Assembly: GCA_049281435.1 (NCBI GenBank)
Contig: JBAPSB010000016.1
Location: forward strand, 10,262 to 74,261
Source of the DNA: Desulfobacterales bacterium
Lineage (GTDB): Bacteria; Desulfobacterota; Desulfobacteria; Desulfobacterales; SG8-13
Direction of reading: 5' to 3'
DNA: 64,000 bases
Shown: positions 9,822-60,128 of the stretch, in pieces
How positions within the stretch are numbered: the first letter of the stretch is position 1
How the letters are laid out: each line of letters starts with the position of its first letter
Notes under the pieces: model-generated
Databases searched by the model: none
Told to the model about the DNA's origin: nothing
Seen by the model: only the letters and a program-made list of their open reading frames with translations
Program-made: the position numbers and the translations under genes

Positions 9822-10309
9822 CAGTTGGCCTGCATGATTTTTTGCCGCGCGCTGGTAAACTCTTCGGCCGAGATCAGGTCATCCGCCAGCAGACGCGCCA
9901 GTTCGGCCAACTCCCGCTTGCGGATGGCCCCCATGTCTTCGAGTTGCGCGATCGGCCGGCCGCTGTGGTATTCCAGGGCCGCCGGGGCGTTGGCCTCCCC
10001 CACTTTGAAAGACATCATTCCCCCGAGAAAACTGATTTCGAAAGGCCGCCCCTTCATCGCAGGCACATCGAGGCTATTGATCAGTTCGCGTCCGCCGGCT
10101 CGGGCGCGGCGGTACAAAACAAACGCCAGGACCAGCAAGGCCGCGCCGCCACCCAGCAGGACCCACAGCAGATAGCGGGCCACTCCGCCGATCAACACCA
10201 CCGTGACCCCGATGGCGGCGACCACCAAGAGCTGCAGCAATATGATGAGATGCGCCAGAAGGAGACCCTTGATCGTCTCGCTGTTTTTTATTTTATCTAT
10301 TAATCTCAT
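9821..10309 (-). CDS. membrane protein with C-terminal SHOCT domain
   Basis: Two TM helices, then LADDLISAEEFTSARQKIM (SHOCT-like). The stop overlaps the creatininase ATG by 1 nt (TGATG). Start chosen at MRLIDK (10309) but no SD is visible. Confidence 0.55.
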   Translation of the reverse strand: MRLIDKIKNSETIKGLLLAHLIILLQLLVVAAIGVTVVLIGGVARYLLWVLLGGGAALLVLAFVLYRRARAGGRELINSLDVPAMKGRPFEISFLGGMMSFKVGEANAPAALEYHSGRPIAQLEDMGAIRKRELAELARLLADDLISAEEFTSARQKIMQAN

Positions 10310-14999: not shown

Positions 15000-16079
15000 T
15001 CATCCGCGCCGGCCGATATCGCCCAGCAGGCGCCGCTCGATCTCCTTGGCCGCCCACTGCGGGTCCTGCCGGCGCTGGCCTTCGCCGTGCACCGCCAGCA
15101 TGGTTTCGGCATTCCGGCGGGCGGTACGGTGACCAGCAAGGGCCGCCTCGGCAATCAGCTGCCAGTCGCCGGAGCCGATGAAAAGCTGAAACGCGACCAT
15201 CAGTTCCGGGAAGAACTCTTTTCCCAGGCCATCGAAAAAAGCCACGTAAAATCCGAGGGCGGCGGCATCCTGGCTGTCCACGATGTGCTGCAGCGGACCT
15301 CTTTCGCCGGTATCGGCCAGAAGATCTTTCACCGCGCGGGCGGCGAGTTCAACCGGCGTGTGGGGGTGGGCGGCGATGATCTCGCGCCATGTGTCGCGCC
15401 GGAAAACCGCGTCTTCCCTCTCGCCAATTTCATGATAGATGTAGGTCTGGCTCTGTACGGCGAGGATCCGGCCCAGGCTGCGCTGCACTTCCTCATAGCC
15501 CGGGTTCTGCAGGCCGCAGTGATGAAAGGCGAAATTAAGCGCCGGGCGGCCCGATTTCTTGATGTAAAAAATCTTATCCCACAAAAAGAGCCGCGCCGCC
15601 TCCTGGCGCAGGACAATGCCGTCCACCTGGGAGAGGGCCGGGATGGTCAGCAAATCGCGTGCCAGCTCCCGGCCGAGGGTGTAAACCGTGTGGCCGTCAA
15701 CCGGCGACTTGTCCGCAAGGCCGGCCAGCAGAAAGGTCGGCTTCAGGCTGTGGGCATACCCGGCCCCGTAAAAAAAACCGCGGGGTTCGAGCATGGCATT
15801 TATGTTTTGGGTGTCGAAAAGATCGAAACGCCGACCGTCGATGTAAAGGTCGGTCGGCTGTTTGTCGGCCAGCTTTTCCCACTGGTTCTCTTTGGCATCG
15901 ATCCACTCCAGGATTTCGGCCGAATCCTTTTCGACCCACGGGGGCAGCCGGTTTTCCCACTTGTAGAGATCGCGCAGCCGCAGGGCCAAGCCGCAGATGG
16001 AATAAAAGCCGGCATGCCGGGCGTCCGAAATGTCGCAGTTGCGCCGCACCTGCCGGGTGATGTCGTCGATATCGACCAT
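15000..16079 (-). CDS. conserved hypothetical protein, 359 aa, partner of the MreB paralogue
   Basis: The ATG follows the upstream TAA with 0-nt spacing (TAAATG). No domain recognised by eye. Confidence 0.6.
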   Translation of the reverse strand: MVDIDDITRQVRRNCDISDARHAGFYSICGLALRLRDLYKWENRLPPWVEKDSAEILEWIDAKENQWEKLADKQPTDLYIDGRRFDLFDTQNINAMLEPRGFFYGAGYAHSLKPTFLLAGLADKSPVDGHTVYTLGRELARDLLTIPALSQVDGIVLRQEAARLFLWDKIFYIKKSGRPALNFAFHHCGLQNPGYEEVQRSLGRILAVQSQTYIYHEIGEREDAVFRRDTWREIIAAHPHTPVELAARAVKDLLADTGERGPLQHIVDSQDAAALGFYVAFFDGLGKEFFPELMVAFQLFIGSGDWQLIAEAALAGHRTARRNAETMLAVHGEGQRRQDPQWAAKEIERRLLGDIGRRG

Positions 16080-49285: not shown

Positions 49286-51229
49286 TTATCCAACCGGCAC
49301 AACCGATCCGCGAAGTGCCGTCAAACCTTCACCCGGCAAGGTTTCGGGCACCTCGCCGTAGGTGCCCAGGATTTTCAGGAAATCCGTCTTTTGCTCCAGT
49401 TGCTCTCGCACGGGTTTCAAGGCATCGGCACCGAGGTCCGCCTCGATATCCATGTAAAACATGTAACGCCACGGTTCTCCCTGCAGGGGCCGGGACTCGA
49501 GCTTGATCAGGTTGATGCGGTTTTCAGCAAAAATCTTCAAGGTCTCGTAGAGGGCACCGGGCTCGTTGCTGGTCGAGCAGATGAGCGAGGTCCTGTCGGC
49601 AAAACCCTTGCAGAGTGGGCTCTTGGCGATGATGACAAAACGGGTGTAATTGCGCGGGTTGGCTTCGATGTTCTCCGCCAGCACCTGCAAATTGTATTCC
49701 TGAGCGGCCACCAGGCCGGCGATGGCGGCATCGGCGGTCGTTTCACCGGCAGCCACGCGCTGGGCGGCCGCGGCGGTATCGCTGACCGCCACCAGTTCCC
49801 AGTCGTGCTGTTCGAGAAACTGGCGGCATTGACCGAACACCTGCGGATGCGACAGGACGCGTCGGATGCCGTCGATGGCCGCACCGGGCAGCGCCATCAG
49901 ATGATGCATGATGCGCAATTTGATCTCACCAATGATTTTCAAATCGTAATCCTTCAAGAAATCGTAGTTTTCATGAATACTGCCGCTGAGTGAATTCTCC
50001 AGCGGTATGACGCCGAAGTCGGCGGCATCGGTTCTGACGGCCTCGAAGACGCCTTTGAAAGAAGGCACCGGCAGCGCCTCGACCTCGCCGCCGAAATACT
50101 GCCGGCAGGCCTTGTGGCTGAAAGTACCGACACGCCCCATGAAAGCCGCCCGCTGCCGGCCGCCATGGGTATGGCGGCTGCGCATCTCGACGGCCCGGGC
50201 CTTTTCAATATAGCCGAAGTCGAGCTGCTTGCCGACGACCGGAGCGATGACGTAAAGATCTCGCATCAGCTGGCCGAACTGCAGGGGGTACAAACTCTGC
50301 GGACCATCCGAAAGCGCCTTATCGGGTTCGTGATGAACCTCGATCATCAGCCCGTCGGCGCCGGCGGCAATGGCGGCCCGGGCCATGGGGCTTACTTTTT
50401 CCCGGCTGCCGGTGGCGTGACTCGGATCGATGATGATCGGCAGGTGGGTTATTTTTCTCAGGACCGGAATGGCCGTCAGGTCCAGGGTGTTGCGCGTGTA
50501 GGGTTCGAAAGTGCGGATGCCGCGCTCGCACAGCATGACGTGTGGATTGCCTTCGGAGAGGATGTACTCCGCCGACATGAGCCATTCTTCGATCGTGCCG
50601 GACAGGCCACGCTTCAGAAGAACCGGCAGGCCCATGCGGCCGACCACCTTGAGCAGTTCGAAGTTCTGCATGTTGCGGGCGCCGATCTGAACCACGTCCA
50701 CGTATTTCAGCATGAGATCGGCCTGGGACGGGGCGGTCATCTCGGTGACGACGCCCAGGCCGCAGGTGTCGCGGACTTCGGCCAGGATCTTCAAGCCCTC
50801 TTCTTCCAACCCCTGAAAAGAATAGGGCGAGGTCCGCGGTTTGAAGGCCCCGCCGCGGAACAAGACCGCTCCGGCCTTTTTGACCCAGCGGGCGATGATC
50901 AGCGCCTGCTCGCGACTTTCGATGGCGCACGGGCCGGCAATGACCGTTAAACGATCCCCACCGATCAGCGCATCCCCCACGCGAACCAGCGTATCCTGCG
51001 GGTGCATTTGACGGCCGGCGAGCTTGTAGGGCGTGCCGACGGCGACCGTCCGGGCCACTCCGGGCAGTTTCCTGTAAAAATCCTCGGGGTGTCGTTTCGG
51101 GTTCATGACGCCGATGCGTTGAACATCGGTGTCCGGCAACTCCCGTAAATCGCAGCGCCGTTCCTGCAGAATCGCCATCAGCGCGGTTTTTTCAGTGTTT
51201 GTCATGTTGGGCGTCAGTTCGAGTATCAT
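49286..51229 (-). CDS. bifunctional type I-beta DAHP synthase (with N-terminal regulatory domain) / prephenate dehydratase + ACT
   Basis: N-terminal half: [31 protein letters not shown]-terminal half: [18 protein letters not shown], then ACT with ESRP. Confidence 0.85.
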
Positions 51230-51304
51230 CGCTCTTTTTCCTTTCACGGGTTAGTGGGTATTCAGTCATAACTGCTTTTTTTCCGCTGGACTGCCGGAGC
51301 ACAT

Positions 51305-52737: not shown

Positions 52738-52753
52738 TGGCACCGCTCTTGCT
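52738..52753 (+). promoter_or_regulatory. sigma54 promoter TGGCAC-CGCTC-TTGCT
   Basis: Perfect consensus, preceded by a 40-nt AT-rich tract. 152 nt upstream of ATG 52905. Confidence 0.7.
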
Positions 52754-52904: not shown

Positions 52905-53291
52905 ATGAAACTTTTCAAGGCAGCGGTTTGCACGATGATGGTGGCGCTATTTCTGTTTGCCGGCATGGCATTCCAGGCAAACCAGGCAATGGCCAGTGAC
53001 AAGGAAGCAAAACAGGTCGAAATTTTCGGCACGGTTCAGAATTCCCCCAATGGTTTTATCGTTATGTCCGAAGGCAAGCAATATCGCCTGGAAGGGCAGG
53101 ACCTTTCCAGCATGAAAGGCAAAATGGTGACCATCAAGGGAACCGTCAGCGAGGAGGGCGGGAAAAAAGTCCTGCATGTCACCTCGGCCGCCAAGAAGGA
53201 ATCAGTTGGAAAGGGAATTTTTTTAACGCTGCGTAAAATGAAAGACGGAAGAAGGCCGGCCCGCCAGTCGGCCTTCTTCCGTTTTACGTGA
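52905..53291 (+). CDS. small secreted protein, 128 aa
   Basis: AGGAGG RBS. Signal peptide MKLFKAAVCTMMVALFLFAGMAFQANQAMA. No family recognised. Confidence 0.6.
   Translation: MKLFKAAVCTMMVALFLFAGMAFQANQAMASDKEAKQVEIFGTVQNSPNGFIVMSEGKQYRLEGQDLSSMKGKMVTIKGTVSEEGGKKVLHVTSAAKKESVGKGIFLTLRKMKDGRRPARQSAFFRFT
53247..53286 (+). terminator. rho-independent terminator (GGAAGAAGGCCG-N10-CGGCCTTCTTCC + GTTTT)
   Basis: Perfect 12-bp stem. It lies inside the last 15 codons of the ORF. Confidence 0.7.
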
Positions 53292-53372: not shown

Positions 53373-55625
53373 TTAAATCAAAGATTTGCAGTAAACCACC
53401 TTGCCGTCACCCGGCGCGTAAAAATCCGCCAGCACGCTCTCCAGGTGATAGCCGCCGCTTTCGTAAAACGCCCGCGTACTGGCGTATTGCACCCGCTGGG
53501 AGGTTTCGACGTAAATGCGCGTCCCGCCGCGCTGCCGTATCAGGCGCTCGGCCTCCTTTAAAATCCTGCGTCCCAAGCCTTTGCCCTGATAATCCGGATG
53601 GACCGCTATCCAGTAAATATCGTAGCTCGACACCGTACAGGCGATCGGCCCATAACAGGCGTAGCCGGCCAGGCGCCCGTAGTGTTCGGCCATGACATAG
53701 TGGTATCCGCTGGCCTCCCCCTTGGCCAGGCGTTCGTTGACAAGCTCGACCGCCACCTGCACTTCGTCGGCGGTGAAAAAACCGGTGATGTCCGTTAATC
53801 GAGAGATCCTTTCGGGATCCTGCGGCTGCGGCTCATAGCGAAAGACGATGCCGTGCAGCCGGACCTTGGGCTCCGGGCGCCGGCCGACCGCTTGCATGTG
53901 CGCCTCCGCCAGGCCCTTGAAGAAACTGCGGGCGTTCTGGCCGAGGGTCCGGGTGCGGTAACCGCCTTCCTGAACGACCACTGTCGGCACGGCCATCGCG
54001 CCGATCAGGCGCCCGTTTTCCTCGAAATCTTTGGCCATCAACGCCCAGGAGCCGGTCGGATCGCCCTTGGCGGTGTCCAGGCCCAGGGCCACCACCAGAA
54101 ATTGCGGGCCGTATTCTTCTATTCTCTGAAGGGCCTTGACCAGCACCCGGCGGTATTTTTCACCGTCCAGATGCTCCTGCAGGGGAAAGTTCAGGTTGAA
54201 TCCCTCGCCTTCACCGTCGCCGCGTTCGTCCTCGAAGCCGGAGAAATAGGGGTAGGCGAACCGGGGGCTGCCGTGGATCGAAACGGTCAGCACATCGGAC
54301 CGGCGGTAGAAAATATCCTGTTGGCCGTTGCCGTGGTGATAGTCGATGTCGAGGATGGCGACCTTTCCGTAGGCGCAAAGGTACTGGGCCGCGATGGCGT
54401 TGTTGTTGAAATAGCAGAAGCCGCCGAAGGCCCGGCGTTCGGCGTGATGGCCCGGCGGACGCACCAGGGCGTAAGCCATGCGCCGACCGTCCAGGATTTC
54501 ACGGGCGGCGGTCAGCGCGCAGTCCACCCCGCGCCGCGCCGCCGGATACGCGTTGCGGTTGATGGGGGTGAAGGTGTCGATGCAGTAGTAGCCTGACAGG
54601 ACCGACGGCTCTTTCGGGGGGCGGGTCTTGTTGCGAACCGGAAACACGTATGGATAGAGGGATTTGCCCTCGGGCACATCCGCGGAGGCGTGGTGCAGAT
54701 AGCCGACGAAATCGGCATCGTGAACGGCGTGGATGGTCTTGTCCGGAAACGCCCGTGGTTTGAGCCGGGCAAACAGGCCGCTCTTGTCGAGTTCCGCCAG
54801 GATGCTGCGCACTCTGACGGGCGACTCCACGTATCCGCGCTCGTGCACGTGATGGATGTGGTGGCGGTCATTGACGATCAGGGCGATCTGCTCGATGGAG
54901 CGGTCATCGACCGTCGTCTTCACGGCCTGTGGTTTGACATACCGAAACTCGCGCAGCGCCACCGGATCTTCCTGAATAGAGGCCACCACCTTCTCGACGT
55001 ATTCGGCCGGGCAATACCCGCTGTACTTTCTTTCCAGGATGGCCCGCACCACTTTGCGCACAAAAGCGCGGCGCAATGGTTTGACGGCATCCAGGGCATC
55101 GTAGACCAGATGGGGCATGCAGCTGTCCCCCGGATTGACGGGCAGCTCGTAGCCGGTGTGAACAATCGGCCGGGCGCCGTAGCGCTCGTAAAATCGCAGG
55201 CGCGCCCGGTTTTCCTTCAGCAGGGTTTCGTCGGGGCAGTTTTCGGCATCGTCCGGCAGGCACTCGAAAAAAAGCCCGCCGGCGCCCAGGGCGACCGATT
55301 CCCTGCGCACCCGGTCATACAGGGCACCGCCCAATCCGCCGCCGGTTTTGCCGCTGGCCGTGGCAATCCAGTCCAGATAGCAGAAGCCGATTTCGGGCTC
55401 GTGCAGCAGCATGGCAAAGCCCTTGACGCGGCTGCGCAGGGTCTTGGCCACAAAGAGGATGGGGCGGAACCGCTGCTTGAAAGGGTTGCGCAGCTTGGCG
55501 CCGATTTGCTCGATTTCTTCTTCGGGGACTTGGCTGAAGCGGTCGCGCAGGATGGCCTTTACCTGTTCCAGGGTCTCCTTGTTGACCGGCAGGACGTCAT
55601 CGAAAATGCGGCGAATACGCAGCAT
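53373..55625 (-). CDS. three-domain fusion: GNAT-like / HDAC-family (acetylpolyamine amidohydrolase-like) deacetylase / GNAT
   Basis: Central RPPGHHA, DIDYHHGNG and EGGY. C-terminal GNAT YQGKGLGRRILKEAE. The N-terminal ~200 aa are GNAT-like. ATG 55625 lies 5 nt after the upstream stop. Confidence 0.75.
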   Translation of the reverse strand: MLRIRRIFDDVLPVNKETLEQVKAILRDRFSQVPEEEIEQIGAKLRNPFKQRFRPILFVAKTLRSRVKGFAMLLHEPEIGFCYLDWIATASGKTGGGLGGALYDRVRRESVALGAGGLFFECLPDDAENCPDETLLKENRARLRFYERYGARPIVHTGYELPVNPGDSCMPHLVYDALDAVKPLRRAFVRKVVRAILERKYSGYCPAEYVEKVVASIQEDPVALREFRYVKPQAVKTTVDDRSIEQIALIVNDRHHIHHVHERGYVESPVRVRSILAELDKSGLFARLKPRAFPDKTIHAVHDADFVGYLHHASADVPEGKSLYPYVFPVRNKTRPPKEPSVLSGYYCIDTFTPINRNAYPAARRGVDCALTAAREILDGRRMAYALVRPPGHHAERRAFGGFCYFNNNAIAAQYLCAYGKVAILDIDYHHGNGQQDIFYRRSDVLTVSIHGSPRFAYPYFSGFEDERGDGEGEGFNLNFPLQEHLDGEKYRRVLVKALQRIEEYGPQFLVVALGLDTAKGDPTGSWALMAKDFEENGRLIGAMAVPTVVVQEGGYRTRTLGQNARSFFKGLAEAHMQAVGRRPEPKVRLHGIVFRYEPQPQDPERISRLTDITGFFTADEVQVAVELVNERLAKGEASGYHYVMAEHYGRLAGYACYGPIACTVSSYDIYWIAVHPDYQGKGLGRRILKEAERLIRQRGGTRIYVETSQRVQYASTRAFYESGGYHLESVLADFYAPGDGKVVYCKSLI

Positions 55626-55630
55626 CGTGG

Positions 55631-56698
55631 TCAAGCTCCTCTGGGGCGGGTGCCCGGTGTGCCGCACCGTCGGCCGCACCTCAGCGCATCTTCCAGGATT
55701 TTTTGAACGGCCTCCGGAAAGGACACCCCGGCTTCGGTGAGAGCGGCGGCGAAACCGGCATCGGGCGACAGACACGGGTTGGTATTGACCTCCAGGATCC
55801 AGGGGGTGCCGTGCGGATCTACTCGAAAATCGACACGCGCGTAGCCGCCGAGACCGAAGATGCGCCAGCAGTCGAGGGCCTCGGCCTTCAGGCGGCCCAG
55901 CAGCCCGTCATCGGCGGACGGAAAATCAAATCGTCGCGGGGTGTGGTGGTACTCGTAGGAATCCGGCGCCCATTTGGCTCGGTACCCGACAATCCGCGGT
56001 TTGTGGTCGTCATAGCCCTCGAAGACAATCTCGGCCGGCGGCAGGACAAGGGGCCCGGTCGCATCGGCCAGCATGGCCAGGTTGAACTCGCGGCCGTCCA
56101 CATAGCCTTCCGCGAAACAGGATCCGCCGAGGCGCGGGGCGCGGTCGCGCAAGACCGTCTCGATCTCCTCTTGGCTGAGATCGGCGACCAGCGCATCTTC
56201 TTCCATACCGAACGAGGCATGCTCCCAGACGGATTTGACGATCCAGCGATCGCCGTGCGTGTTGGCGGGGCGCGCCGCCGCGGCGGGTAGCAGTGACAGC
56301 GGCTCGGCCGGATACGGTCCCCGCCAGGCCGGCGTGCGCAGACCGGCGGCCATCAAAAGTTCCTTGGCCATGATCTTGTGGGTGGTCAGCTGCAGCGTCA
56401 CCGCCGGTGAACCGGTGTAGGGCAGCACCATCGCATCCAGCAGCGCGGGAAACAGGTGGGCCAGGCACCCGTGGTCATCGAGCGACTCCACCAGGTTGAA
56501 GACGAGATCCGGCCGGGCCTGCTCCAACCGATCCCGGGCGCCCGCCAGGTCAAGGGAGCAGGGGAAGGTGTGCGCCGCGTGCCCGAGCACGGCCAGCGCT
56601 TTTTCGACGGCTGCCGCCTGGGCCAGCACGTCTATCGCATCGGGGGCGCTGTCCCGGGTCACGGCGTTGTGCACGACGGCCACACGCATATCAGTCAA
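55631..56698 (-). CDS. D-alanine--D-alanine ligase-like ATP-grasp protein (paralogue 1)
   Basis: ATP-grasp C-terminal pattern ARVDFRVDPHGTPWILEVNTNP. Overlaps the upstream gene by 8 nt. Confidence 0.7.
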   Translation of the reverse strand: MTDMRVAVVHNAVTRDSAPDAIDVLAQAAAVEKALAVLGHAAHTFPCSLDLAGARDRLEQARPDLVFNLVESLDDHGCLAHLFPALLDAMVLPYTGSPAVTLQLTTHKIMAKELLMAAGLRTPAWRGPYPAEPLSLLPAAAARPANTHGDRWIVKSVWEHASFGMEEDALVADLSQEEIETVLRDRAPRLGGSCFAEGYVDGREFNLAMLADATGPLVLPPAEIVFEGYDDHKPRIVGYRAKWAPDSYEYHHTPRRFDFPSADDGLLGRLKAEALDCWRIFGLGGYARVDFRVDPHGTPWILEVNTNPCLSPDAGFAAALTEAGVSFPEAVQKILEDALRCGRRCGTPGTRPRGA

Positions 56699-57704
56699 CG
56701 GCTCCTTTTCGGTTGGCCGCCGAGTCGATCCGCCGGGCCGCAGAAGCCACGATGTCCCGGATCAGCTCCTCATAGGGCATCCCGATGTGGCTGCAGATGA
56801 TCGGCAGGTCCGAATGGAAGGGGTGCAAGCCGGCCAGGGGGTTGACCTCCATGAAATTCGGCCGGCCGTTTTCATCGCAGCGCAAATCGATCCGGCCGGC
56901 ATCCCGGCACTCGAGCACCCGCCAGGCCCGCAGGGCAACGTCTTCGGCCTGCTTCACCGGCAAATCGTCATCCGGGCGGCCGAGCCGGTATTCGACCAGC
57001 TCCTCGCAGCGTTCCTTGTTGACATAGGAATAGACCTCGGGTTCGGCGGCCGCCAGCAGGTGCACTTCGATAGTGCCGAGAACCCTGGCCTGCGCGCCGG
57101 TTCCCACGATGCCGACCGTAAACTCCCGGCCCGGCAGATAGCGCTCGACCAGAACGGGCTGGTGGAAGGCGGCGATCAGAGATTCGCAGGCGGCGGATAG
57201 ATCTTCCGACCGCCGCACGATCGATTGGGGCGTAATCCCCTTGCCGGTACCCTCCGCCACCGGCTTGACGAAGTACGGCGGGGGAAAGGGCAGCGGCCCG
57301 GCGGCCTCGCCCGGTCGGACCACGGCAAAATCCGGTGTGGGGATGCCGGCATCGCGCACCACGCGCTTGGTCACCGCCTTGTGCAGGGTCAGGGCCATGA
57401 CCAGGGGATCCGAAAAGGTGTAGGCAATGCCGTAGACATCCAGCGCCGAGGGGACCTGGGCCTCGCGGCCGATGCCCTTGAGTCCCTCGGCGATATTGAA
57501 AACAAGGTCCCAGCGGTCGCCGGTGGTCAGACGCCCGAACAGGCTGCGGACACTGCCGATGCGATCGGTGGCATGCCCCAGGCCGCGGAGGGCTTTTTCG
57601 ATGGCCACCACGGTATCGTCACGGTCGAACTCGGCGGTTTCCTCTTCACCGAATCCGGCCGCCAGGTATTCCGAACGCAGGTCGTAGGTCAGACCGATTT
57701 TCAT
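56691..57704 (-). CDS. D-alanine--D-alanine ligase-like ATP-grasp protein (paralogue 2)
   Basis: YFVKPVAEGTGKGI and GRIDLRCDENGRPNFMEVNPLAG. Start chosen at MKIGLTYDL. Confidence 0.7.
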   Translation of the reverse strand: MKIGLTYDLRSEYLAAGFGEEETAEFDRDDTVVAIEKALRGLGHATDRIGSVRSLFGRLTTGDRWDLVFNIAEGLKGIGREAQVPSALDVYGIAYTFSDPLVMALTLHKAVTKRVVRDAGIPTPDFAVVRPGEAAGPLPFPPPYFVKPVAEGTGKGITPQSIVRRSEDLSAACESLIAAFHQPVLVERYLPGREFTVGIVGTGAQARVLGTIEVHLLAAAEPEVYSYVNKERCEELVEYRLGRPDDDLPVKQAEDVALRAWRVLECRDAGRIDLRCDENGRPNFMEVNPLAGLHPFHSDLPIICSHIGMPYEELIRDIVASAARRIDSAANRKGAVD

Positions 57705-57790
57705 TGCTTGAATCCTTTGGTAGGTTCTCCTGCGGATGCCCACCTCTACATCACCGGCGAAAACCGGGCAAGTTAAAACCCCGGCCGGGT

Positions 57791-57833
57791 TTCGAAAACC
57801 GTTTCCGGTTCCGAAACCCGGCCGATTCAGCGG
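57791..57833 (-). terminator. long intercistronic hairpin (13-bp stem CGGCCGGGTTTCG / CGAAACCCGGCCG) followed by GGGTTTT
   Basis: Read directly. Lies between the kamA stop (57870) and the first ATP-grasp start (57704). Short U-tract. Confidence 0.4.
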
Positions 57834-57869
57834 GCGGAGAAATATGATCTATGGAGGGGATTCCGGCCG

Positions 57870-59219
57870 TCAGACCGAAGCGCCGGGGTCGATATCCGCG
57901 GCCCGGCAATCGGGATAGCGATACAGCCGATTTTCGTAGTTGCGAAGCAGCAGATCGGATCCCTCCCGGCCGGCCGTGTAATCGGGCATCAGCGGGACCT
58001 TGCCGCCGCCGCCGGGCGCATCCACGACATAGGTCGGCACGGCGTATCCGCTGGTAAACCCCCTCATCCCCCGGATGATCTCCAGGCCCTGGGCGATCGA
58101 GGTCCGGAAATGGCCCGAACCGGTTATCGGGTCGCACTGGTAGAGGTAGTAGGGCCGCACCCGCATCCGCAGCAGACCGTGACACAGCGCGGTCATCGTC
58201 GCCACCGAATCGTTTACGCCTTTGAGCAGGACCGTCTGCGAGCCTAACGGTATGCCGGCATCGGCCAGCATTCCACAGGCGCGGGTGGTCTCCGGCGTGC
58301 ACTCGTCCGGGTGGGTGAAATGCAGGCTCATCCAGAGCGGGTGGTACTTGCGCAGCATCCGTACCAATCGCCCGGTGACCCGCTGCGGCAGAACGGCCGG
58401 GATCTTGGTCCCGATCCGCACGACCTCCACGTGGGGTATCCGCCGCAGACGCGCCAGAATCCACTCCAACCGGTCGTCGTTGAGGGTCAACGGGTCGCCG
58501 CCGGACAACAGCACGTCGCGCACGGACGGCGTCGCACGGATATAGTCGATCGCCTGCTCGAGACGCGACCGGCTCGGCAAAATGGCGCCGTGCCCCACCA
58601 CCCGGGACCGCGTGCAGTAGCGGCAATACGTGGAACAGAAATCGTGCACCAGCAGAAGGACCCGGTCGGGGTAGCGGTGGACGAGGCCTGGTACCGGGCT
58701 CTGGTTCTCCTCTCCGAGCGGATCGTTTGCCTCTCCCGCCGAGCTGACAAACTCGCTCATCGTCGGCACGACCGTGCGCCGCAAAGGCTGGTCGGCGTCA
58801 TCGGCGGACAGCAGGCTCATGTAATACGGTGTTATGCCCATTGGCAGCTTGGGACCGGTATGCTCGCCGACGGCTTTTTCCAAAGCGGAGAGATTCAGCA
58901 TCGACTGAAGCTGCCGGTAGTGCCGGATCCGGTTTCGGATCTGCCATTGCCAATCATTCCAGGATTTGTCGGGCACGCCGGGGAAAAACTTGCGCCGGAA
59001 GGCGCGCGTGGTTACGGAGGTGCGAGCGACACGCTCGGGGGGGAATCTGAGGACGACGGCCGCGTCATTGCAGCGCGGGGCTCGCCGAAGTACGCAGCTG
59101 GCAGTCGGCTCGGAAGCCGCTGCCTGTCTACCCGGAGGCTCTTCGTCTTCCCTTCCCTGCAAGGCGTCCTGGGGGCCGTTTGCAACGGTCGGTTGAAAAA
59201 TGGACGGGTTAGGATGCAT
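57870..59219 (-). CDS. kamA: KamA-family radical SAM lysine 2,3-aminomutase
   Basis: WNDWQWQIRNRI, radical SAM CSTYCRYCTRS, GGDPL, and a PLP-region pattern. AAGGAG RBS. Confidence 0.85.
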   Translation of the reverse strand: MHPNPSIFQPTVANGPQDALQGREDEEPPGRQAAASEPTASCVLRRAPRCNDAAVVLRFPPERVARTSVTTRAFRRKFFPGVPDKSWNDWQWQIRNRIRHYRQLQSMLNLSALEKAVGEHTGPKLPMGITPYYMSLLSADDADQPLRRTVVPTMSEFVSSAGEANDPLGEENQSPVPGLVHRYPDRVLLLVHDFCSTYCRYCTRSRVVGHGAILPSRSRLEQAIDYIRATPSVRDVLLSGGDPLTLNDDRLEWILARLRRIPHVEVVRIGTKIPAVLPQRVTGRLVRMLRKYHPLWMSLHFTHPDECTPETTRACGMLADAGIPLGSQTVLLKGVNDSVATMTALCHGLLRMRVRPYYLYQCDPITGSGHFRTSIAQGLEIIRGMRGFTSGYAVPTYVVDAPGGGGKVPLMPDYTAGREGSDLLLRNYENRLYRYPDCRAADIDPGASV

Positions 59220-59318
59220 TACCGGTTCTCCTTTTCTGTTGGGATCAAAGTCGACCCTGGGGGGTGTCGCCCTTAGTGCCGGACGCCCAGCGGTCAGTCC
59301 GGCTTTTGCCCTTCGCTT

Positions 59319-59334
59319 AGCAAAACAGGTGCCA
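59319..59334 (-). promoter_or_regulatory. sigma54 promoter TGGCAC-CTGTT-TTGCT upstream of kamA
   Basis: Perfect consensus about 100 nt upstream of ATG 59219. Confidence 0.7.
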
Positions 59335-59752
59335 AATAATCAAAACACCTGAAAAAAATCGCCGGCGCCGAATGCACGCCGCTGAAAGACGCCAGCCCTT
59401 TATTTTAGACGGTTCGGCCGCATCGTCAAACCGGATGCGGGTCGGCGTGCCCGTTGACGCACCGCCAGCGGGGTGACAGTGAAGAACTCACGGTTCCTTT
59501 TTTGGCCTCTAAGGGAATTATGTGTTCGCGTAGGGCGGTCGGGGGGCCCGGCACCTGATTTCAAAAATTCCACCACGGACAAACGGGTCCGCCGATTTCA
59601 TTTATATCTTTATCTTCAGTAGGTTGAATTTCCGGATTCTATTATCCGCAAATCGGCCCGTGGCCCGCGCGCCAGCCCGACCGGAACACTCAGTTCCACC
59701 CGTCTGCCGGCCGGCAAAGATTTAACCGGGATGATAACCAGGTGTTACGCGC

Positions 59753-59768
59753 CCGGCACGGGAATTGC
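59753..59768 (+). promoter_or_regulatory. sigma54-type promoter CGGCAC-GGGAA-TTGCT
   Basis: GG/GC at canonical spacing. 82 nt upstream of ATG 59850. Confidence 0.55.
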
Positions 59769-59849
59769 TCTTTGAAACCGGATTTCAGCGCTCACAGCGC
59801 CCGTCGATCGGCGCCATCGTCAACTTCACCAACAAGGAGAATACGTCAG

Positions 59850-60128
59850 ATGAAACGACATAAGGATGCCCGGCAGGAGGTCACACTCATCGGTTTCGTC
59901 GATCCGCTGGACGACGATGATGACAACACCGGCGTTAAGATCTCGACCGATGAGGACGAATATATCGTCGAGATGAACCGGACGGGAAAAAAGCTTTTAA
60001 ACATGATAGACGAAGAGATCGAGGCGACCGGAAGTGTGTCGCTCGATGCCAACGGAGCGAAAATATTCAGCGTGACCTCTTATGACTACGCTCCGTATGA
60101 CGAAAACGAAGAAGATGCCGCCCAATGA
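59850..60128 (+). CDS. small acidic protein, 92 aa
   Basis: AAGGAGA RBS. Asp/Glu-rich (DPLDDDDDNTG, YDENEEDAAQ). No family recognised. Confidence 0.55.
   Translation: MKRHKDARQEVTLIGFVDPLDDDDDNTGVKISTDEDEYIVEMNRTGKKLLNMIDEEIEATGSVSLDANGAKIFSVTSYDYAPYDENEEDAAQ

Follow-up and report, generated by a model that had tools for sequence, protein, structure and literature searches.

A conserved operon joining a lysine 2,3-aminomutase, two Ddl-like ligases and a GNAT-deacetylase protein: a candidate pathway to a beta-lysine-derived metabolite

Enzymes encoded by the operon

We analysed a 64,000-nt stretch of contig JBAPSB010000016.1 from a Desulfobacterales bacterium (positions 10,262 to 74,261 of the forward strand; the window), in which a reading of the sequence alone, here called the original prediction, had proposed an operon for an undescribed beta-lysine-derived product. 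The open reading frame (ORF) list contains the four co-directional minus-strand genes at the coordinates given in that prediction. The first, kamA (57870..59219), encodes a lysine 2,3-aminomutase-type radical S-adenosylmethionine (SAM)/pyridoxal 5'-phosphate (PLP) enzyme of 449 aa, and a GGAG ribosome-binding site stands 5' of its ATG. It is followed by grasp1 (56691..57743) and grasp2 (55631..56698), the first and second paralogues of a Ddl-like ATP-grasp ligase, and by a gene (53373..55625) for a 750-aa fusion protein with a GNAT/acetylpolyamine-amidohydrolase (APAH)-like/GNAT arrangement. The grasp2 ORF shares 8 nt with the grasp1 ORF and the fusion ORF begins 5 nt past grasp2; the overlap, the gap and the protein length had all been read correctly. 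The motifs CSTYCRYC, RPPGHHA, DIDYHHGNG, EGGY and YQGKGLGRR were each found in the proteins, and profile hidden Markov model searches with Pfam and NCBIfam bore out the proposed domain assignments. Taken as a whole, the interpretation then offered is partly supported.

KamA carries the Radical_SAM and LAM_C domains of Pfam with the motif CSTYCRYC, and has a variable N-terminal extension of ~75 aa. Its alignment with the PDB entry 2A5H, the lysine 2,3-aminomutase of Clostridium subterminale, spans 362 residues (E = 1.9e-137). C195/C199/C202, D363, D400 and K407 are invariant in 66 of 66 homologues; D363 and D400 correspond to D293 and D330 of 2A5H, the ligands of the lysine epsilon-ammonium group, and K407 to its PLP lysine, K337. 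Glutamate-specific 2,3-aminomutases, as Ruzicka and Frey reportedly described, have Lys and Asn at the positions of these two aspartates. Neither aspartate is replaced in KamA, which scored 421.7 bits with the glutamate 2,3-aminomutase model TIGR04368 (cut-off 650) and 378 bits with the Arg-mutase model (cut-off 600). The top-scoring of the NCBIfam family models was that of AblA (TIGR03820, 479.7 bits, cut-off 525.4), and the cut-off of the KamA-family subfamily model TIGR00238 was exceeded (347 versus 199 bits). Membership of the EpmB clade, raised beforehand as an alternative, is not borne out: the EpmB model TIGR03821 gave 251.7 bits where 369 would be required, KamA and E. coli EpmB share 34% identity, and tblastn found zero matches to elongation factor P (EF-P) or EpmA in the window or in ~170 fetched loci; an EF-P/EpmA link of the operon was rejected accordingly. 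Because it keeps the cysteines of the radical-SAM cluster motif, the PLP-binding lysine and the two substrate-binding aspartates, KamA is predicted to be a lysine-type 2,3-aminomutase and not an EpmB or glutamate mutase. As the AblA model is the best match but stays under its cut-off, and TIGR00238 is passed, KamA is placed in a sister clade that adjoins, but lies outside, characterised AblA.

The two ligases are 27% identical and both match Dala_Dala_lig_C (E = 4e-25 for Grasp1, E = 1.5e-14 for Grasp2); the conserved start of grasp1 is probably M14, at 57704. The equivalents of E. coli DdlB K97, K144, E180, E187, K215, R255, D257, E270 and N272 are invariant in 63 Grasp1 and 69 Grasp2 sequences. 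The D-Ala pocket of DdlB is altered in both. Grasp1 has E for Y216, D for L282 and T for S150, with S281 and E15 kept; Grasp2 has W for Y216, G for L282, A for S150 and A for S281, with E15 unconserved and C additionally replacing G276. The best Ddl model scores were 145.8 bits for Grasp1 and 103.5 bits for Grasp2 against a cut-off of 243 bits (NCBIfam), and all Ddl and Van models fell far under their cut-offs. The replaced pocket residues and the low model scores agree with the earlier view that these are not genuine D-Ala-D-Ala ligases. Since the ATP, Mg and acyl-phosphate residues are invariant, the D-Ala pocket is rebuilt and the Ddl/Van scores are low, Grasp1 and Grasp2 are probably active with new substrates, that is, catalytically intact but re-specified Ddl-like ligases, the identity of whose substrates we infer. 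Across phyla 111 positions of Grasp1 do not vary; acidic residues are numerous among them, and the invariant acidic pocket would suit a cationic diamino substrate.

Profiles of the two ligase families matched Ddl enzymes first in the PDB and then generic ATP-grasp proteins; no characterised relative closer than Ddl was found in these searches. PylC (TIGR03909) was not among the 21 families matched by Grasp2, nor among the best 25 of the 36 model matches of Grasp1, and no PylC structure appeared in the PDB profile matches of either family. NCBIfam has no curated model for either ligase or for the fusion protein.

The fusion protein divides into three parts. Residues 1-245 (54891..55625, minus strand) form a divergent GNAT domain with a helical linker, assigned from Pfam, a family profile and a structural model. 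Residues 246-575 (53901..54890, minus strand) form an APAH-like zinc deacetylase, assigned from Hist_deacetyl, the PDB and Foldseek, and residues 592-750 plus the stop codon (53373..53852, minus strand) a RimI-like GNAT (Acetyltransf_1 and Acetyltransf_7, E ~6e-18). Within these, Pfam places Hist_deacetyl at residues 266-571 (E = 1e-76) and the C-terminal GNAT at residues 638-727.

A PDB sequence search with the deacetylase domain returned APAHs as the best matches (6phr at E = 2e-71), and Foldseek likewise ranked APAH structures at the top (TM 0.88-0.93, 36-38% identity). H393-H394, D426, the H428/H430 region, D517 and Y556, which comprise the tandem His, zinc ligands and catalytic Tyr, are invariant in 64 sequences. 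The domain thus has the arginase-deacetylase fold, tandem His, Asp-His-Asp and Tyr of the APAH/class II HDAC fold. The original description of an HDAC-fold deacetylase was right as to the fold, but the narrower type is the small-molecule acetylpolyamine amidohydrolase: judged by these sequence and structure comparisons, the enzyme appears closest to the small-molecule APAH type rather than to the protein deacetylase type. The fused GNAT and the operon context suggest that its substrate is an aminoalkyl amide other than acetylated polyamines.

Both outer domains have the fold, the acetyl-CoA P-loop (R/Q-x-x-G-x-G/A) and the motif B of GNAT proteins. The structure nearest to the C-terminal GNAT is 2r7h (E = 3.9e-41). 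The N-terminal domain of the window protein gives weak Pfam GNAT matches, and PF00583 and PF13508 are called in many homologues. As a single sequence it retrieved nothing useful from the PDB, matches coming only with the family profile, which hit GCN5, YpeA and RimI structures. Its AlphaFold2 model (mean predicted local distance difference test score 86) has the strand and helix order of GNAT topology, and neither the P-loop glycines G97/G99 nor an FYE motif (145-147) varies among 64 sequences. The fusion protein showed no match to AblB (TIGR03827) at E <= 0.01 in NCBIfam; the best matches were RimI-type and under their cut-offs.

Conservation and promoter of the gene set

Relatives of the fusion protein were sought with one genome per species. 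At least 536 species carry one, and the best 80, all from Desulfobacterota, were examined for context. By tblastn, kamA, grasp1 and grasp2 lie directly 5' of the fusion gene, in constant order, in ~72 of these 80 loci, which is nearly all of those whose flanking DNA is long enough; the fusion gene is without them nearby in eight. Desulfococcus multivorans, Desulfosarcina widdelii and Desulfatitalea alkaliphila are examples of carriers that can be cultured. An exhaustive search over 50%-identity cluster representatives showed the 750-aa architecture to be rare and a protein of N-terminal GNAT plus APAH (GNAT-APAH, ~575-590 aa) to be far commoner. One branch of GNAT-APAH proteins, 56-62% identical to the window protein, comes from Calditrichaceae, KSB1, Acidobacteria, Krumholzibacteria, 'Abyssubacteria' and Deferrisomatales metagenome-assembled genomes (MAGs), among others.

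The same five enzyme units were found in Calditrichaceae, KSB1, Acidobacteria and 'Abyssubacteria' MAGs and on two metagenome contigs, with cross-phylum identities to the window proteins of 56-64% for KamA, 57-60% for Grasp1, 37-44% for Grasp2 and 58-61% for GNAT-APAH. The order kamA, grasp1, grasp2, GNAT-APAH and a separate small GNAT occurs in three phyla and on metagenome contig L095, and the last GNAT is an ORF of its own (141-196 aa) in L170, L171, L172, L095, L174 and L092. At the 'Abyssubacteria' locus L174 the small GNAT lies 5' of GNAT-APAH; next to the operon are a gene for a response-regulator sigma-54 activator and a small ORF, with a major facilitator superfamily (MFS) transporter directly downstream. 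L092 carries ligase, GNAT, short kamA and GNAT-APAH, in that order. The gene set is therefore collinear in Desulfobacterota and recurs in at least four further phyla, in line with the synteny that the original prediction had called for. Because the five units are kept through fusion, fission and reordering across phyla, they probably work together, and this strongly argues for one functional module. The single GNAT-deacetylase-GNAT protein of the original prediction is present in the window, but its three-domain form is, on this comparison, a Desulfobacterales-specific fusion of the module's last two genes, and the conserved core is predicted to be the N-terminal GNAT plus deacetylase of ~580 aa.

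A more distant GNAT-APAH branch (38-45% identity to the window protein) is found in Proteobacteria, Nitrospinota, Nitrospirota and Bdellovibrionota-like MAGs, often alone. In L082 (5941-9719, Nitrohelix vancouverensis) and L087 (5710-11152) GNAT-APAH adjoins a ~640-aa fusion of a SAM methyltransferase and a Ddl-like ligase, and a Peptidase_M32 carboxypeptidase is part of both clusters, which form a second type, independent of beta-lysine, around the same bifunctional enzyme. The partnership of GNAT-APAH with Ddl-like ligases would therefore reach beyond beta-lysine. A metagenome scan with the 575-aa family alignment added little, 74 of 80 loci being plain APAHs because the scan patterns fell within the deacetylase domain; the informative loci were L090-L095 only.

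Three side observations concern variants of these loci. An extra CxxCxxCC gene (PF03692, putative Zn/Fe-binding, ~173 aa) lies between kamA and grasp1 in 25 Desulfobacterales loci (for example L010 5446-5967 and L041 5449-5973), where it overlaps the grasp1 start; it is not found in the lineage of the window or in other phyla. The complete operon occurs twice, on separate contigs, in CAWBYM01 (L005 and L008) and in JAHECI01 (L035 and L037), which could reflect true duplication or strain mixing in the bin. At L173 (5302-8743, labelled 'Candidatus Eremiobacteraeota' MAG) a lone GNAT-APAH gene adjoins an IS605 OrfB/TnpB-like gene, which hints that it is mobile.

Upstream of kamA, a sigma-54 -24/-12 element, TGGCACCTGTTTTGCT, was read at 59319..59334 on the minus strand, with its -12 GC ~100 nt 5' of the kamA ATG, as had been described. 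Allowing one mismatch, the window has eight matches to the 16-mer where 2.1 would arise by chance, and three of the eight are perfect; for this reason a single perfect match is in itself only suggestive. The element is conserved, however: it stands 5' of kamA in 16 of 59 related Desulfobacterota loci (chance ~8e-4 per locus) and is invariant in an alignment of ten promoter regions (A3). Further upstream, a putative enhancer (59483..59530) comprises GGAACCGTGAGTTCT at 59483-59497, a perfect GGAAC-N5-GTTCY match, and the half-palindrome GAACACATAATTCC at 59514-59527, both conserved in A3 at ~150-190 nt upstream. A second perfect palindrome, GGAAC-N5-GTTCC, lies at 59683..59697 between kamA and a divergent small gene. 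These two are the only zero-mismatch GGAAC-N5-GTTCY palindromes in the window, and both fall within the 530-nt kamA upstream region. The other perfect TGGCAC-N5-TTGCT matches are at 52738-52753 (plus strand), ahead of a secreted DUF5818-like gene convergent with the operon, and at 15649-15664 (minus strand).

Locus L174 has its own sigma-54 element, TGGCATAACTATTGCC, with the same type of palindrome upstream and an adjacent NtrC-family response-regulator activator. Similarly, in two Desulfobacterium MAGs (L071 and L072) a homologue of this activator (50% identity to that of L174) lies directly 5' of kamA. No enhancer-binding-protein gene was found beside the operon in the window. The sigma-54 motif was not found at the Calditrichota, KSB1 and Acidobacteriota loci or in L095, and sigma-70-like -35/-10 boxes were read upstream at the Calditrichota and Acidobacteriota loci. 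The predicted control of the operon by sigma-54 thus has good support here; as a trait of the operon in general it does not, being limited to some Desulfobacterales and one 'Abyssubacteria' locus, and it appears to be lineage-specific. Neither riboswitches nor other RNA families were detected by Rfam at the gathering threshold, either in the window or at four cross-phylum loci.

The small gene divergent from kamA (59850..60128, plus strand) encodes an acidic protein of ~92 aa that belongs to no Pfam family, and a sigma-54-like CGGCAC-N5-TTGCT element with one mismatch precedes it at 59754-59769 on the plus strand. Its homologues adjoin kamA or the activator gene in 15 loci from two phyla, including L174, and stand beside the activator gene in L071 and L072. 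Many have a poly-acidic C-terminal tail, which is not conserved. The gene is probably accessory and co-regulated. It was also considered as a LysW-like carrier or an EF-P-like target; as the family is without cysteines, a conserved lysine or a conserved acidic tail, we retain this as a minor alternative only.

Candidate product and competing explanations

We favour a small-molecule product because the deacetylase has an APAH-type fold, the ligases are of Ddl type, L174 has an MFS transporter and a conserved target protein is lacking; the solved relatives of the Ddl-like clade found here are free-amino-acid ligases. The reading we prefer, held with about evenly balanced confidence, is that the module assembles a small beta-lysine-containing amide conjugate in an ATP-dependent manner, with acetyl groups serving for protection or turnover. 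KamA would turn L-lysine into beta-lysine, an activity deduced from its enzyme class and lysine-type pocket. Each of the translationally coupled ligases would then form one amide bond through an acyl-phosphate, the partners being perhaps one or two further amino or carboxyl compounds, or additional beta-lysine units. The two GNAT domains would acetylate free amines from acetyl-CoA, and the APAH-like domain may strip the acetyl group from an aminoalkyl amide. Such a set could protect, couple and deprotect in turn, so that the epsilon-amine is kept from side reactions, or it could act as a built-in switch between an acetylated (neutral) and a free (cationic) product. In the organism of the window, a dedicated enhancer-binding protein that recognises the GGAAC-N5-GTTC sites would switch the operon on from the sigma-54 promoter. 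As leading candidates, the product may be a nitrogen-rich compatible solute or an exported metabolite. The original prediction had named as candidates a reversibly acetylated beta-lysine di- or tripeptide or oligomer that would serve as osmolyte, nitrogen store or signal.

More tentatively, and a little short of even confidence, we propose that the gene set represents an undescribed multi-phylum pathway to a new beta-lysine metabolite, in which GNAT-APAH provides the protect, ligate and deprotect steps and some lineages own a two-component sigma-54 activator and possibly the small acidic partner. If so, the ~580-aa GNAT-APAH family would be a general partner of Ddl-like ligases.

The module combines known kinds of pathway, those of beta-lysine-derived metabolites and those of ATP-grasp peptide ligases, and is not a new category. 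AblA/AblB of methanogens and some bacteria, the route to N-epsilon-acetyl-beta-lysine, is the precedent that likewise has a lysine 2,3-aminomutase of a similar subfamily and a GNAT in one operon; the operon described here has in addition a pair of ATP-grasp ligases, another GNAT and a deacetylase of APAH type. In the PylB/PylC precedent a radical-SAM lysine mutase acts before a Ddl-like ligase that couples the carboxylate to an amine. That logic is shared, but KamA is a PLP-dependent 2,3-aminomutase rather than a PylB-type mutase, the operon here is without PylD, and the Pyl system has neither GNAT nor deacetylase. Ngg, with AsnO, makes N-acetylglutaminylglutamine amide, an N-acetylated dipeptide-type solute, from a GNAT and an ATP-grasp ligase; the Ngg ligase is RimK/cyanophycin-like and uses glutamine substrates, and its pathway has no aminomutase or HDAC-fold deacetylase. 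Carnosine synthase is a precedent for an ATP-grasp enzyme using a beta-amino acid, arginine biosynthesis for an N-acetyl protecting cycle, and glutathionylspermidine synthetase/amidase for opposing activities in one polypeptide. The APAHs of Mycoplana, Marinobacter and Pseudomonas share their fold and catalytic residues with the deacetylase domain, which, unlike them, is always preceded by a fused GNAT, in Desulfobacterales is also followed by one, and here belongs to a beta-lysine/ligase operon.

Several points weigh against the amide-conjugate reading. Its substrate and product are predictions. The score of KamA stays under the equivalog cut-off for AblA, and neither GNAT is picked up by the AblB model of NCBIfam. 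With an acetylase and a deacetylase in one polypeptide, futile cycling would result unless the two are regulated or each acts on a different nitrogen. Only one locus has a transporter beside the operon. On one Desulfobacterales contig (L023, 845-5397) kamA is followed directly by grasp2 and the fusion gene, and grasp1 was undetected. In eight Desulfobacterota loci and on many Proteobacteria, Nitrospirota and Eremiobacterota contigs GNAT-APAH occurs without neighbouring module genes, and a function independent of beta-lysine therefore exists or is possible.

Among the alternatives, plain N-acetyl-beta-lysine metabolism, with one GNAT as an AblB analogue, the APAH-like domain for breakdown and the ATP-grasp proteins peripheral, is in our view unlikely. 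AblA is indeed the closest model to KamA, the carriers are sediment anaerobes, and N-epsilon-acetyl-beta-lysine resembles the N-acetyl-diamine substrates of APAHs, to which the deacetylase is similar. However, two intact ligases are co-inherited across phyla and are among the most conserved members of the set, as the invariant residues of Grasp1 illustrate; TIGR03827 is unmatched by either GNAT, and AblAB systems do without these extra genes (PMC3543383). Protein modification is unlikely to a similar degree. Here the ATP-grasp pair would attach beta-lysine or another residue to a protein, much as EpmA/EpmB, RimK, LysX/LysW or TTL do; acetylation and deacetylation would then act on the modified lysines or on their neighbours, and the small acidic protein could be target or carrier. 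The RimI-like C-terminal GNAT would fit this, as would the match of the HDAC domain to HDAC6 (E = 1e-56), the small protein with its acidic C-terminal tail, co-located and apparently co-regulated in its 15 loci, and the Peptidase_M32 carboxypeptidase of the related methyltransferase-ligase clusters. EpmA/EpmB itself is a precedent for a KamA-family enzyme supplying beta-lysine for ATP-dependent ligation to a protein; EpmA, though, is a class II aminoacyl-tRNA synthetase paralogue and not an ATP-grasp enzyme, and KamA is not EpmB-type and has no efp or epmA nearby. The ligases resemble Ddl and not RimK, LysX or TTL, the deacetylase has its nearest matches among small-molecule APAHs, and the small protein is missing from most loci and conserves neither its acidic tail nor its lysines.

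A polymer for nitrogen storage seems to us quite improbable; it would be a homo-oligomer of beta-lysine or a polyamide like cyanophycin, capped by the GNATs and mobilised by the amidohydrolase. Having two different ligase sites is reminiscent of cyanophycin synthetase, which also has two and whose ATP-grasp domain is weakly matched by Grasp1 and its profile. The C-terminal GNAT weakly matches streptothricin acetyltransferase and the N-terminal GNAT profile weakly matches putative streptothricin/nourseothricin acetyltransferase structures, enzymes that acetylate beta-lysine chains, and the pairing of sigma-54 and a response-regulator activator is characteristic of nitrogen control. These cyanophycin and streptothricin-acetyltransferase similarities are generic and far under the family cut-offs, however; the operon has no primer-binding domain and no dedicated depolymerase, the matched HDAC-fold enzymes cleave small acyl amides and not peptide backbones, and sigma-54 does not generally control the operon. 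We consider it very improbable that the genes serve lysine catabolism through acetyl-protected beta-lysine, modelled on kamA-yodP-yodQ of Bacillus and the beta-lysine pathway of Pseudomonas. KamA, an acetyltransferase for beta-lysine and a deacetylase are common to the kamA-yodP-yodQ-yodRST operon of Bacillus subtilis and the module. The Bacillus operon, though, has a CoA-transferase, an aminotransferase and an M20-type deacetylase (YodQ) and no ATP-grasp ligases; here the deacetylase is of the HDAC fold, no aminotransferase, dehydrogenase, CoA-transferase or thiolase is in or adjoining the operon in any phylum, and two ATP-consuming ligases would make no sense in such a route.

A full-text literature search over 8 million papers found no publication covering this gene set, and NCBIfam holds no curated model for it, in agreement with the original prediction, which recognised no characterised system of this composition. 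The set is not described in the Pelobacter genome paper, sigma-54 regulon papers, the Orca Basin preprint or a recent survey of bacterial classical deacylases, which also leaves GNAT fusions unmentioned. PADLOC matched the operon proteins to no known or candidate defence system. Under the amide-conjugate reading the module, whose signature protein has relatives in at least 536 species genomes, would add a fate common in sediment anaerobes to the few that are known for beta-lysine in bacteria. It defines a fused acetyltransferase/deacetylase enzyme family with a substrate yet to be assigned, and two new Ddl-like ligase subfamilies that are annotated today as D-alanine--D-alanine ligases. Were the product to serve as osmolyte or nitrogen store, or to be exported, it would be relevant to the way in which sulfate reducers and the organisms around them meet salt or nitrogen stress. 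The module is in either event a clonable four- to five-gene target for metabolite discovery.

Other genes in the window

The DUF5818-like ORF (52905-53291, plus strand) was considered as a member of the module and rejected. It probably lies outside it, because it is kept in just the closest relatives (L001-L003 and L065). Elsewhere, a single 653-aa ORF on the minus strand (49286-51247) combines a type I 3-deoxy-D-arabino-heptulosonate 7-phosphate (DAHP) synthase, a prephenate dehydratase and an ACT domain, so that the entry enzyme of the shikimate pathway is linked with one that acts late in the phenylalanine branch.

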